In this document: in pieces, positions 850-7,433 of the stretch
Layout: each line of letters begins with the position of its first letter
Position numbering within the stretch: position 1 is the first letter of the stretch
NCBI GenBank assembly: GCA_000004985.1
Contig: GG739139.1
Source: Naegleria gruberi
Taxonomy: Eukaryota
Length of the DNA stretch: 7,433 nt
Reading direction: 5' to 3' (one strand)
The notes under the pieces: model-generated
The model's database searches: none
What the model was told of the DNA's origin: nothing
What the model saw: the letters and a program-made list of their open reading frames with translations, nothing else
Made by a program: the position numbers and the translations under genes

Positions 850-973
850 AATTTACCAAGTTCCGATATTTGATGCTACCAGAGTTGATTCATAGCCCAA
901 TTACAAATCAAACAACAATAAAACAACAATTCATAATGTTTATTATGTTGTTGAATGTATAATTTCGAGTCTT

Positions 974-3900
974 NNNNNNNNNNNNNNNNNNNNNNNNNNN
1001 NNNNNNNNNNNNNNNNNNNNNNNNNNNNNNNNNNNNNNNNNNNNNNNNNNNNNNNNNNNNNNNNNNNNNNNNNNNNNNNNNNNNNNNNNNNNNNNNNNNN
1101 NNNNNNNNNNNNNNNNNNNNNNNNNNNNNNNNNNNNNNNNNNNNNNNNNNNNNNNNNNNNNNNNNNNNNNNNNNNNNNNNNNNNNNNNNNNNNNNNNNNN
1201 NNNNNNNNNNNNNNNNNNNNNNNNNNNNNNNNNNNNNNNNNNNNNNNNNNNNNNNNNNNNNNNNNNNNNNNNNNNNNNNNNNNNNNNNNNNNNNNNNNNN
1301 NNNNNNNNNNNNNNNNNNNNNNNNNNNNNNNNNNNNNNNNNNNNNNNNNNNNNNNNNNNNNNNNNNNNNNNNNNNNNNNNNNNNNNNNNNNNNNNNNNNN
1401 NNNNNNNNNNNNNNNNNNNNNNNNNNNNNNNNNNNNNNNNNNNNNNNNNNNNNNNNNNNNNNNNNNNNNNNNNNNNNNNNNNNNNNNNNNNNNNNNNNNN
1501 NNNNNNNNNNNNNNNNNNNNNNNNNNNNNNNNNNNNNNNNNNNNNNNNNNNNNNNNNNNNNNNNNNNNNNNNNNNNNNNNNNNNNNNNNNNNNNNNNNNN
1601 NNNNNNNNNNNNNNNNNNNNNNNNNNNNNNNNNNNNNNNNNNNNNNNNNNNNNNNNNNNNNNNNNNNNNNNNNNNNNNNNNNNNNNNNNNNNNNNNNNNN
1701 NNNNNNNNNNNNNNNNNNNNNNNNNNNNNNNNNNNNNNNNNNNNNNNNNNNNNNNNNNNNNNNNNNNNNNNNNNNNNNNNNNNNNNNNNNNNNNNNNNNN
1801 NNNNNNNNNNNNNNNNNNNNNNNNNNNNNNNNNNNNNNNNNNNNNNNNNNNNNNNNNNNNNNNNNNNNNNNNNNNNNNNNNNNNNNNNNNNNNNNNNNNN
1901 NNNNNNNNNNNNNNNNNNNNNNNNNNNNNNNNNNNNNNNNNNNNNNNNNNNNNNNNNNNNNNNNNNNNNNNNNNNNNNNNNNNNNNNNNNNNNNNNNNNN
2001 NNNNNNNNNNNNNNNNNNNNNNNNNNNNNNNNNNNNNNNNNNNNNNNNNNNNNNNNNNNNNNNNNNNNNNNNNNNNNNNNNNNNNNNNNNNNNNNNNNNN
2101 NNNNNNNNNNNNNNNNNNNNNNNNNNNNNNNNNNNNNNNNNNNNNNNNNNNNNNNNNNNNNNNNNNNNNNNNNNNNNNNNNNNNNNNNNNNNNNNNNNNN
2201 NNNNNNNNNNNNNNNNNNNNNNNNNNNNNNNNNNNNNNNNNNNNNNNNNNNNNNNNNNNNNNNNNNNNNNNNNNNNNNNNNNNNNNNNNNNNNNNNNNNN
2301 NNNNNNNNNNNNNNNNNNNNNNNNNNNNNNNNNNNNNNNNNNNNNNNNNNNNNNNNNNNNNNNNNNNNNNNNNNNNNNNNNNNNNNNNNNNNNNNNNNNN
2401 NNNNNNNNNNNNNNNNNNNNNNNNNNNNNNNNNNNNNNNNNNNNNNNNNNNNNNNNNNNNNNNNNNNNNNNNNNNNNNNNNNNNNNNNNNNNNNNNNNNN
2501 NNNNNNNNNNNNNNNNNNNNNNNNNNNNNNNNNNNNNNNNNNNNNNNNNNNNNNNNNNNNNNNNNNNNNNNNNNNNNNNNNNNNNNNNNNNNNNNNNNNN
2601 NNNNNNNNNNNNNNNNNNNNNNNNNNNNNNNNNNNNNNNNNNNNNNNNNNNNNNNNNNNNNNNNNNNNNNNNNNNNNNNNNNNNNNNNNNNNNNNNNNNN
2701 NNNNNNNNNNNNNNNNNNNNNNNNNNNNNNNNNNNNNNNNNNNNNNNNNNNNNNNNNNNNNNNNNNNNNNNNNNNNNNNNNNNNNNNNNNNNNNNNNNNN
2801 NNNNNNNNNNNNNNNNNNNNNNNNNNNNNNNNNNNNNNNNNNNNNNNNNNNNNNNNNNNNNNNNNNNNNNNNNNNNNNNNNNNNNNNNNNNNNNNNNNNN
2901 NNNNNNNNNNNNNNNNNNNNNNNNNNNNNNNNNNNNNNNNNNNNNNNNNNNNNNNNNNNNNNNNNNNNNNNNNNNNNNNNNNNNNNNNNNNNNNNNNNNN
3001 NNNNNNNNNNNNNNNNNNNNNNNNNNNNNNNNNNNNNNNNNNNNNNNNNNNNNNNNNNNNNNNNNNNNNNNNNNNNNNNNNNNNNNNNNNNNNNNNNNNN
3101 NNNNNNNNNNNNNNNNNNNNNNNNNNNNNNNNNNNNNNNNNNNNNNNNNNNNNNNNNNNNNNNNNNNNNNNNNNNNNNNNNNNNNNNNNNNNNNNNNNNN
3201 NNNNNNNNNNNNNNNNNNNNNNNNNNNNNNNNNNNNNNNNNNNNNNNNNNNNNNNNNNNNNNNNNNNNNNNNNNNNNNNNNNNNNNNNNNNNNNNNNNNN
3301 NNNNNNNNNNNNNNNNNNNNNNNNNNNNNNNNNNNNNNNNNNNNNNNNNNNNNNNNNNNNNNNNNNNNNNNNNNNNNNNNNNNNNNNNNNNNNNNNNNNN
3401 NNNNNNNNNNNNNNNNNNNNNNNNNNNNNNNNNNNNNNNNNNNNNNNNNNNNNNNNNNNNNNNNNNNNNNNNNNNNNNNNNNNNNNNNNNNNNNNNNNNN
3501 NNNNNNNNNNNNNNNNNNNNNNNNNNNNNNNNNNNNNNNNNNNNNNNNNNNNNNNNNNNNNNNNNNNNNNNNNNNNNNNNNNNNNNNNNNNNNNNNNNNN
3601 NNNNNNNNNNNNNNNNNNNNNNNNNNNNNNNNNNNNNNNNNNNNNNNNNNNNNNNNNNNNNNNNNNNNNNNNNNNNNNNNNNNNNNNNNNNNNNNNNNNN
3701 NNNNNNNNNNNNNNNNNNNNNNNNNNNNNNNNNNNNNNNNNNNNNNNNNNNNNNNNNNNNNNNNNNNNNNNNNNNNNNNNNNNNNNNNNNNNNNNNNNNN
3801 NNNNNNNNNNNNNNNNNNNNNNNNNNNNNNNNNNNNNNNNNNNNNNNNNNNNNNNNNNNNNNNNNNNNNNNNNNNNNNNNNNNNNNNNNNNNNNNNNNNN

Positions 3901-6197
3901 NNNNNNNNNNNNNNNNNNNNNNNNNNNNNNNNNNNNNNNNNNNNNNNNNNNNNNNNNNNNNNNNNNNNNNNNNNNNNNNNNNNNNNNNNNNNNNNNNNNN
4001 NNNNNNNNNNNNNNNNNNNNNNNNNNNNNNNNNNNNNNNNNNNNNNNNNNNNNNNNNNNNNNNNNNNNNNNNNNNNNNNNNNNNNNNNNNNNNNNNNNNN
4101 NNNNNNNNNNNNNNNNNNNNNNNNNNNNNNNNNNNNNNNNNNNNNNNNNNNNNNNNNNNNNNNNNNNNNNNNNNNNNNNNNNNNNNNNNNNNNNNNNNNN
4201 NNNNNNNNNNNNNNNNNNNNNNNNNNNNNNNNNNNNNNNNNNNNNNNNNNNNNNNNNNNNNNNNNNNNNNNNNNNNNNNNNNNNNNNNNNNNNNNNNNNN
4301 NNNNNNNNNNNNNNNNNNNNNNNNNNNNNNNNNNNNNNNNNNNNNNNNNNNNNNNNNNNNNNNNNNNNNNNNNNNNNNNNNNNNNNNNNNNNNNNNNNNN
4401 NNNNNNNNNNNNNNNNNNNNNNNNNNNNNNNNNNNNNNNNNNNNNNNNNNNNNNNNNNNNNNNNNNNNNNNNNNNNNNNNNNNNNNNNNNNNNNNNNNNN
4501 NNNNNNNNNNNNNNNNNNNNNNNNNNNNNNNNNNNNNNNNNNNNNNNNNNNNNNNNNNNNNNNNNNNNNNNNNNNNNNNNNNNNNNNNNNNNNNNNNNNN
4601 NNNNNNNNNNNNNNNNNNNNNNNNNNNNNNNNNNNNNNNNNNNNNNNNNNNNNNNNNNNNNNNNNNNNNNNNNNNNNNNNNNNNNNNNNNNNNNNNNNNN
4701 NNNNNNNNNNNNNNNNNNNNNNNNNNNNNNNNNNNNNNNNNNNNNNNNNNNNNNNNNNNNNNNNNNNNNNNNNNNNNNNNNNNNNNNNNNNNNNNNNNNN
4801 NNNNNNNNNNNNNNNNNNNNNNNNNNNNNNNNNNNNNNNNNNNNNNNNNNNNNNNNNNNNNNNNNNNNNNNNNNNNNNNNNNNNNNNNNNNNNNNNNNNN
4901 NNNNNNNNNNNNNNNNNNNNNNNNNNNNNNNNNNNNNNNNNNNNNNNNNNNNNNNNNNNNNNNNNNNNNNNNNNNNNNNNNNNNNNNNNNNNNNNNNNNN
5001 NNNNNNNNNNNNNNNNNNNNNNNNNNNNNNNNNNNNNNNNNNNNNNNNNNNNNNNNNNNNNNNNNNNNNNNNNNNNNNNNNNNNNNNNNNNNNNNNNNNN
5101 NNNNNNNNNNNNNNNNNNNNNNNNNNNNNNNNNNNNNNNNNNNNNNNNNNNNNNNNNNNNNNNNNNNNNNNNNNNNNNNNNNNNNNNNNNNNNNNNNNNN
5201 NNNNNNNNNNNNNNNNNNNNNNNNNNNNNNNNNNNNNNNNNNNNNNNNNNNNNNNNNNNNNNNNNNNNNNNNNNNNNNNNNNNNNNNNNNNNNNNNNNNN
5301 NNNNNNNNNNNNNNNNNNNNNNNNNNNNNNNNNNNNNNNNNNNNNNNNNNNNNNNNNNNNNNNNNNNNNNNNNNNNNNNNNNNNNNNNNNNNNNNNNNNN
5401 NNNNNNNNNNNNNNNNNNNNNNNNNNNNNNNNNNNNNNNNNNNNNNNNNNNNNNNNNNNNNNNNNNNNNNNNNNNNNNNNNNNNNNNNNNNNNNNNNNNN
5501 NNNNNNNNNNNNNNNNNNNNNNNNNNNNNNNNNNNNNNNNNNNNNNNNNNNNNNNNNNNNNNNNNNNNNNNNNNNNNNNNNNNNNNNNNNNNNNNNNNNN
5601 NNNNNNNNNNNNNNNNNNNNNNNNNNNNNNNNNNNNNNNNNNNNNNNNNNNNNNNNNNNNNNNNNNNNNNNNNNNNNNNNNNNNNNNNNNNNNNNNNNNN
5701 NNNNNNNNNNNNNNNNNNNNNNNNNNNNNNNNNNNNNNNNNNNNNNNNNNNNNNNNNNNNNNNNNNNNNNNNNNNNNNNNNNNNNNNNNNNNNNNNNNNN
5801 NNNNNNNNNNNNNNNNNNNNNNNNNNNNNNNNNNNNNNNNNNNNNNNNNNNNNNNNNNNNNNNNNNNNNNNNNNNNNNNNNNNNNNNNNNNNNNNNNNNN
5901 NNNNNNNNNNNNNNNNNNNNNNNNNNNNNNNNNNNNNNNNNNNNNNNNNNNNNNNNNNNNNNNNNNNNNNNNNNNNNNNNNNNNNNNNNNNNNNNNNNNN
6001 NNNNNNNNNNNNNNNNNNNNNNNNNNNNNNNNNNNNNNNNNNNNNNNNNNNNNNNNNNNNNNNNNNNNNNNNNNNNNNNNNNNNNNNNNNNNNNNNNNNN
6101 NNNNNNNNNNNNNNNNNNNNNNNNNNNNNNNNNNNNNNNNNNNNNNNNNNNNNNNNNNNNNNNNNNNNNNNNNNNNNNNNNNNNNNNNNNNNNNNNN
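974..6197. other. Unreadable block of 5,224 consecutive N: an assembly gap of estimated size, or a hard-masked segment.
   Basis: Counted directly: N begins after 'aatttcgagtctt' at 973 and ends before 'atctaatcaatc' at 6198. The length is not a round number, which fits a scaffolder's estimated gap or the exact extent of a mask rather than a placeholder. The flanking 5 nt (gtctt / atcta) do not form a target-site duplication. Confidence 0.98.
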
Positions 6198-6414
6198 ATC
6201 TAATCAATCTATCAAACATTGGAGCATCACATTCATTCTGTCTATCTAATTTCAAATGCATTGTCGAATAGCTTTCCAAATATCCACAGCCCCTGAGCAA
6301 TAGCAAAATCTTACAGTAGATTGTCTCTAAAATCAATGTATCAAATCCTTTTGCATGTAACTGTTCATCATTATATTCATAGTAGCCAAACCAAATTTTA
6401 AATCCTTCACAATT
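6198..6414 (-). CDS. Partial CDS or exon, open from 6414 into the N block; probably a downstream exon of the same gene as the LRR ORF.
   Basis: On the minus strand, 72 sense codons follow a TAA at 6415-6417 (NCEGFKIWFGYYEYNDEQLHAKGFDTLILETIYCKILLLLRGCGYLESYSTMHLKLDRQNECDAPMFDRLIR..) and remain open where the N run begins. The chance of this is about 0.92^72, roughly 0.003. The frame is offset +2 from the LRR ORF. A one-base indel cannot join the two frames, because stops in both frames lie between them (6429-6431, 6421-6423, 6415-6417). Splicing is the simplest link. The supplied track reports only 6336.. because it begins at an internal TTG. Confidence 0.35.
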
Positions 6415-6535
6415 TTAAAATTAGGAGATCAAATTTGACAAAGGCGAAACTTCTGATACAGAGATTTAATATATATTAAATAATAAATTTTTTGGAAAGA
6501 GCCACAATGCTCTTTGTGTGAAACTTCATACGTAC
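6405..6535 (-). other. Candidate spliceosomal intron on the minus strand: donor GTACGT at 6535, with an alternative acceptor giving an intron of about 209 nt that ends at 6327.
   Basis: Minus-sense 'ttt g|GTACGTat' at 6536/6535 is a consensus fungal-type 5' splice site in phase 1 relative to the LRR frame. The sequence between it and the LRR stop is AT-rich and low-complexity. A CTAAT branch-like motif sits about 16 nt upstream of an AAG at 6407-6405, and splicing there restores the downstream frame (..GINF-G-FKIWFGYY..). A better-looking acceptor, TTGATTTTAG|, at 6328-6327 also restores the frame in phase 1 (..GINF-E-TIYCKILLLL..). I cannot choose between them without transcript data. Confidence 0.25.
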
Positions 6536-6977
6536 CAAAATTTATACCATCATTATATTGAGATGATGTTGAAAATAGTACAAAAGTGTTACCACTTGCT
6601 TTAATTATTTGTAAATTTGGAAATAATGGTTGCAACCACCATGTATGATTATTATCAAAATCATTACGAATTATTAAAGTTTTCAATTTTGGTAAATTTG
6701 ATATTTGAAAGAAATTTAATCCTTTCAAATTATCTGAATAAATTGAGAGTGTAGTTAGTAAATTAAAAGTAAAAGATATTTCACTATAAAATTCCAATGT
6801 AATATAAAGATATTCTAAATTTGGTAATTTACAAAGTAATTTCAAATCAATGGCACTAATAGGATTACGAAATGTTAAATCTTTCAATGTTGATATTTTA
6901 GAAATGTGATGAAATATATTCTTATTATATTTTACTGAAATTTTAAGAATTAATATTTCTAAATTTAATTTACTCAA
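6429..6977 (-). CDS. Partial CDS, probably internal or 3' exon(s), encoding a leucine-rich-repeat protein of the RNI-like / F-box-LRR-like class. No ATG is present; the true start is unresolved.
   Basis: A frame of 182 codons is open in about 70% AT DNA; the chance of this is roughly 0.92^182, far below 0.001. The translation has periodic L/I/N spacing typical of LRRs (LKDLTF, LCKLPNLEYLYITLEF, LTTLSIYSDNLKGLNFF, ISNLPKLKTLIIRN, LFPNLQIIKASGN). The first codon at 6975-6977 is TTG, not ATG, and the peptide has no internal Met. An in-frame TAA lies at 6993-6995 (minus sense). The N-terminal ~20 codons (tta aat tta gaa ata tta att ctt aaa att tca gta aaa tat aat aag) and the C-terminal ~30 codons (..aaa att tat tat tta ata tat att aaa..) are AT-rich and low-complexity, so they are probably intronic read-through. 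The core coding part is likely about 6540-6905. Confidence 0.55.
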   Translation of the reverse strand: MSKLNLEILILKISVKYNKNIFHHISKISTLKDLTFRNPISAIDLKLLCKLPNLEYLYITLEFYSEISFTFNLLTTLSIYSDNLKGLNFFQISNLPKLKTLIIRNDFDNNHTWWLQPLFPNLQIIKASGNTFVLFSTSSQYNDGINFGTYEVSHKEHCGSFQKIYYLIYIKSLYQKFRLCQI

Positions 6978-7207
6978 TTCTGATAATATGATTTAATATG
7001 TCTTCCTTTTACATTGAATCGTTCGTGTATTTTCCAAACATAGCAATCCAACTCAATTGAGATATTTAATCATTGTATTAAACCACTTTCAAATTTAATA
7101 AAAGACTACTGATGCCATCATAACGGATGAATCCCAGCTTGATCTGTAACTAAGCAATATCAATGAGGTGATTGTCAAGGCACTCTCGGTACTAACATCC
7201 AACCACG

Positions 7208-7239
7208 GGTTGATTCAAAAGAAGTAATTTGAATCAACC
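7208..7239. other. Perfect 12-bp inverted repeat forming a hairpin, with an 8-nt loop.
   Basis: ggttgattcaaa (7208-7219), loop agaagtaa (7220-7227), then tttgaatcaacc (7228-7239), which is the exact reverse complement. After a G.A mismatch, two more pairs (7205-7206 with 7241-7242) extend the stem. It lies about 230 nt upstream, in gene sense, of the LRR open frame, within a locally GC-richer non-coding segment (about 7105-7300) where neither strand has an ORF longer than about 25 codons. Confidence 0.6.
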
Positions 7240-7433
7240 AGTTCGAAGCTTATTGAAATAATTCAATTAAGGGAGAAGGAAATCTGTACCTCTCCAGAGA
7301 AATGATTGAAAAAAACAAGAAGATAAAATAGAATTCTTTAATGTGTTTTGTTTTTTTTGTACATTACTTATCCAACAAACTCAATCTGAGAACCATTTGA
7401 AGTTCCTCATCATTTCTTCAAAAGTGACAGAAC

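Follow-up and report, generated by a model that had tools for sequence, protein, structure and literature searches.

What lies in the central 5.2 kb of the 7,433-nt stretch of DNA analyzed here (the window), which two open reading frames (ORFs) of about 1,800 amino acids (aa) appear to cross from one side to the other? The sequence was read and its letters were counted directly. Positions 974–6197 are a single unbroken run of N, comprising 5,224 of the 7,433 positions (70.3%), and GC content and skew are zero all along it. This agrees exactly with the original prediction, made earlier from the sequence alone, and the count also bears out its statement that nothing can be read from the block. 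The real sequence amounts to 2,209 bases (A 793, T 778, C 340, G 298; about 29% GC), with 973 nt (1–973) to the left of the block and 1,236 nt to the right. There are no ambiguity codes other than N in the 7,433 nt, and no lower-case or soft-mask information. The run at 974–6197 is a placeholder, a stand-in for undetermined or withheld sequence; it is not sequence and not a biological feature, and the central 5.2 kb permits no biological conclusion.

How do two such long ORFs come to span it? The mechanical ORF list gives one of 1,797 aa on the minus strand at 943–6336, in which 46 real residues precede and 9 follow a run of 1,742 X, and one of 1,764 aa on the plus strand at 955–6249, in which the 1,742 X are preceded by 6 real residues and followed by 16. 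Real residues total 55 in the first and 22 in the second, and the share of X is 97–99%. Both ORFs exist because NNN is translated to X, and never to a stop. Furthermore, that one N run gives an "ORF" on both strands is the signature of an artefact. The 1,797-aa and 1,764-aa ORFs are artefacts of translating N, as the original prediction had held. The relevance of this result is to quality control only. ORF finders that are blind to N give very long "proteins" without homologues, which resemble giant orphan genes, and the window may have been selected for this reason. Any screen for novelty should therefore first discard windows dominated by N and ORFs composed mainly of X.

The edges of the N block read ...GAGTCTT on the left and ATCTAAT... 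on the right. The left-edge sequence is ...AATTTCGAGTCTT and the right-edge sequence ATCTAATCAATCTATC..., and the bordering bases can also be written as ...TTTCGAGTCTT (left) and ATCTAATCAATC... (right). The two flanks were compared on both strands, and common k-mers were sought within 40 nt of either edge. The flanks resemble each other most over 26 nt, at 85% (E = 0.03) and distant from the edges, and the longest direct k-mer common to both edges within 40 nt is 6 nt, at an offset of 33–39 nt. There is no target-site duplication directly beside the block, where ...GAGTCTT and ATCTAAT... have no k-mer in common; the absence of such a duplication had also been predicted. The comparison on both strands gave no terminal inverted repeat and no remnant of a long terminal repeat in the flanks near the block. 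Since none of these three hallmarks is present at the edges, the N block is not marked as a discrete inserted element, and its reading as a mobile element or transposon insertion was rejected. Divided by 3, the length of the block leaves a remainder of 1, which by itself means nothing.

What does the placeholder replace? From the non-round length, the original prediction had proposed either a scaffold gap or an exact mask, and 5,224 fits either. On balance, we favor a scaffold gap, with a length estimated from paired reads, in an AT-rich, probably eukaryotic draft assembly. Under the AGP convention of NCBI, a gap whose size is unknown receives a round number of N, typically 100, and an arbitrary length denotes an estimate. 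The block contains uninterrupted N only, and 5,224 is not one of the conventional values for an unknown size (10, 50, 100, 1000, and so on). We prefer a gap because there is a single N run of arbitrary length, and because the flanks are short, unrelated to each other, and free of target-site duplications, terminal inverted repeats, and long terminal repeats. The flanks are also missing from collections centered on prokaryotes and viruses, as those of an unannotated draft eukaryotic scaffold would be. In the proposed course of events, the scaffolder would have estimated the 5,224 nt from read pairs and joined two short contigs, of 973 and 1,236 nt. Given the odd total of 7,433 and the short flanks, the window may correspond to a complete, small mate-pair scaffold made of two contigs of about 1 kb. 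The number of N would then be an estimate only, no reading frame could be extended through the block, and it would be the read pairs alone that place the flanks next to each other in this orientation.

The block resembles a size-estimated gap, as entered on an AGP gap line, in being an N run of arbitrary length between short real sequences, and in that ORF callers that run on through N make X-filled pseudo-proteins from it. It differs in that N outweigh sequence by 5.2 kb to 2.2 kb, an extreme ratio, although one that occurs in mate-pair scaffolds, and in that the gap is identified here by inference. Several further points weigh against a gap. The window itself fits an estimated gap and an exact mask alike, and the signals of a eukaryotic origin are weak. 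The block is also central, with flanks of about 1 kb, as though the window had been drawn round it, and one contig collection is documented to carry deliberate N masks, although the window is absent from that collection.

These last two observations are what would be expected of the main alternative, an exact hard mask of a real, contiguous 5,224 nt, whether a repeat, a mobile element, an annotated feature, or sequence that the provider withheld. We consider such a mask nearly as likely as a gap. In that case, the flanks would truly adjoin the masked interval, and 5,224 would be its exact length. The non-round length of the block also speaks for a mask, as does an open frame of 72 codons that abuts the right edge, as if the mask had cut a gene. 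The likeness to a hard-masked interval is thus that N of exact length take the place of real sequence, and that the neighboring open frame is seemingly cut at the edge. However, searches of the collection with the documented masks, and of two further collections, did not find the window, and the lack of a target-site duplication, terminal inverted repeat, or long terminal repeat remnant near the edges speaks against an exactly masked transposon. Four small tandem repeats (381–400, 906–930, 6824–6846, and 6950–6979) stay unmasked in the flanks. In leaving such tandem and low-complexity patches unmasked, and in having no hallmarks of a repeat element at its edges, the window differs from a typical RepeatMasker hard mask, although the test is a weak one, the repeat scores being low. 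The window also lacks the case information of a soft mask.

Could the block conceal a defense or mobile system in prokaryotic or phage DNA? We regard this as improbable. The flank ORFs have no match better than E 0.05 in PADLOC, PHROGs, or NCBIfam, and neither flank had a match among phage and plasmid records in a sensitive blastn search. Degenerate (back-translated) peptide patterns from an ORF of 182 aa in the right flank, described below, found no relative in IMG/VR, in 185,579 prokaryotic genomes, or in JGI metagenomes. The coding density of the flanks is very low, and their sole good ORF has no ATG. No terminator-like sites were found, and promoter-like sites showed no excess (right flank scanned). 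Alternative genetic codes give no convincing genes in the flanks. The flanks are most likely eukaryotic rather than prokaryotic or viral, judging from a set of weak signals in the sequence. We suggest this because of the low coding density, the absent start codon, the splice-like junctions, and the AT-rich composition, and also because terminator-like sites are lacking and promoter-like ones are not in excess, while the stop-free stretches of the left flank are of at most 81 codons in 973 nt.

Less probable still is an exact mask over unusual content. The masked sequence could be the rest (at most some 1,740 codons) of a large orphan protein with the leucine-rich repeat (LRR)-like ORF of the right flank as its N-terminal part, or a 5.2-kb element inserted beside that ORF, in an AT-rich, probably eukaryotic genome without relatives in current collections. 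No specific content of the N block is supported by anything in the window. Finally, the reading of the ORFs of about 1,800 aa as real giant genes, or as a real multi-gene system that could be analyzed from the window, has the mechanical ORF list as its sole support and is refuted by the sequence itself, which provides 1,742 X and only 55 or 22 real residues per ORF, and in which one N run gives rise to an ORF on each strand.

What can be said of a gene running into the block? The original prediction held that open frames enter the block from the right flank on the minus strand, from 6414 downward, so that the hidden region would contain at least part of a protein-coding gene. The frame is real: it has 72 codons, lies at 6199–6414 on the minus strand, and reaches the N block. 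As evidence of a gene, which the prediction stated too firmly, it is only suggestive. In first-order Markov simulations of matched composition, 2–3% of trials had, in one or another of the six frames, an open stretch of 72 or more codons that reached the edge (p of about 0.02–0.03). The 72-codon frame has GC contents of 35, 31, and 31% at the first, second, and third codon positions, so it has no codon-position structure, while the neighboring 182-aa ORF has a third-position GC content (GC3) of 13%. A codon-position model trained on this LRR-like ORF gives no support for coding, either in the 72-codon frame or in any part of the left flank. Of the frames that touch the block on its left side, the longest has 31 codons. 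A gene concealed in the N block is thus plausible but not demonstrated, because such a frame arises by chance at a rate of 2–3%, shows no codon-position bias, and has no homologue. If the N block is a scaffold gap, as we prefer, the continuation of the frame into it is not even defined.

The 72-codon frame could be connected to the 182-aa ORF by splicing. A hypothetical GT...AG interval of 131 nt, from 6535 to 6405 on the minus strand, joins the two in frame, with the putative intron borders ...AATTTTG|GTACGT...GTGAAG|GATTTAAA (minus strand). The GT...AG intron at 6405–6535 (minus strand) is an inference only, as both dinucleotides, GT and AG, occur often in DNA of this kind. Within it, at 6464–6481, lies a perfect 18-nt palindrome of A and T only, ATTTAATATATATTAAAT, which is probably a chance product of low complexity. 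The hypothetical spliced product of 221 aa, the LRR-like ORF with the 72-aa tail, was used as the query for searches of large protein libraries. A word-indexed search of 5.8 billion protein clusters gave no match at E ≤ 1, and against 1.84 billion representative proteins there were only two matches at E ≤ 1e-3. No homologue of the 72-codon frame, as the tail of this product, was found in either library. The only meaningful match is to the LRR part of a 2,288-aa WD40+LRR protein (P0001, from an ENA metagenome), with E = 3.7e-6 over nine stretches. This protein bears 24 LRR_4 stretches, and its LRR region is matched repeatedly. The second match, a nebulin-like lamprey protein, was dismissed as a false positive driven by repeats.

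The 182-aa ORF at 6429–6977 on the minus strand, within an open frame of 187 codons at 6432–6992, is the only credible coding stretch in the window. At this composition, a stop-free run as long as its open frame has a probability of about 9e-8 per frame. Furthermore, its GC3 of 13% is a very strong AT bias at the third position. From these two results together, we conclude that the ORF is, or recently was, coding. In Pfam, only LRR families are matched, the best being LRR_4 (E = 1.5e-4), with 22.3 bits against a gathering cut-off of 27; LRR_14 scores 15.2 against a cut-off of 40, and LRR_8 is also a weak match. The ORF does not reach the gathering threshold of the LRR families that it matches. 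Its likeness to LRR proteins (Pfam LRR_4 and the LRR clan) thus consists of these weak matches and of the sole library-wide match, to the LRR part of the WD40+LRR protein, whereas its subthreshold score and the lack of close homologues set it apart. The ORF has no methionine and no ATG start; the possible bacterial starts are TTG only, without a ribosome-binding site. Upstream of it, at about 6978–6986 on the minus strand, is an acceptor-like ...tattatcag. An AlphaFold single-sequence model has a pLDDT of 37.5 and is unusable. Among known kinds, a degenerate LRR protein comes closest, with a membership that the Pfam threshold does not establish; the ORF may be an orphan LRR-like exon or gene fragment.

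Could the sequence behind the block be recovered from elsewhere? Exact 27–28-mers from both edges of the N block are absent from IMG/VR viral contigs, and the right-edge 28-mer is absent from GTDB species genomes and from JGI metagenome contigs. Exact-protein look-ups of four ORF variants found none of them. None of the contig, protein, phage, and plasmid collections searched contains the flanks, and the sequence behind the N block was therefore not recovered. Neither flank contains a tRNA or tmRNA, nor a match to an Rfam family at E ≤ 1.

The left flank (1–973) is AT-rich, its longest stop-free stretch has 81 codons, and it contains no recognizable gene, tRNA, or RNA family. It is full of CATCATGA-like and CATCA/TCATGA motifs, which raise the count of TGA on the minus strand. 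Under genetic code 4, a minus-strand frame of 141 codons opens at the left edge of the block (551–973). This candidate was rejected: it has about 6% Trp and reflects the TCATGA/CATCA motifs. Under ciliate codes, long frames open on both strands together, as chance predicts at 29% GC, and these were likewise not accepted as genes. The left flank also carries an imperfect direct duplication of about 50–60 nt, at 146–195 and 366–425, with about 87% identity and an indel of about 10 nt, which ends in ATTATCATCATGA. Weaker copies of its last 25 nt are found at 316–340 and 821–845.

In the right flank, an inverted repeat at 7205–7242, GGGTTGATTCAAA / TTTGAATCAACC, may form a hairpin with a stem of 12–15 bp and a loop of 8 nt. 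Its predicted RNA minimum free energy is −15.8 kcal/mol, with z = −3.8 relative to shuffled sequences. No T run follows the hairpin, which matches no Rfam family and sits in a locally GC-richer patch, at about 7100–7300.

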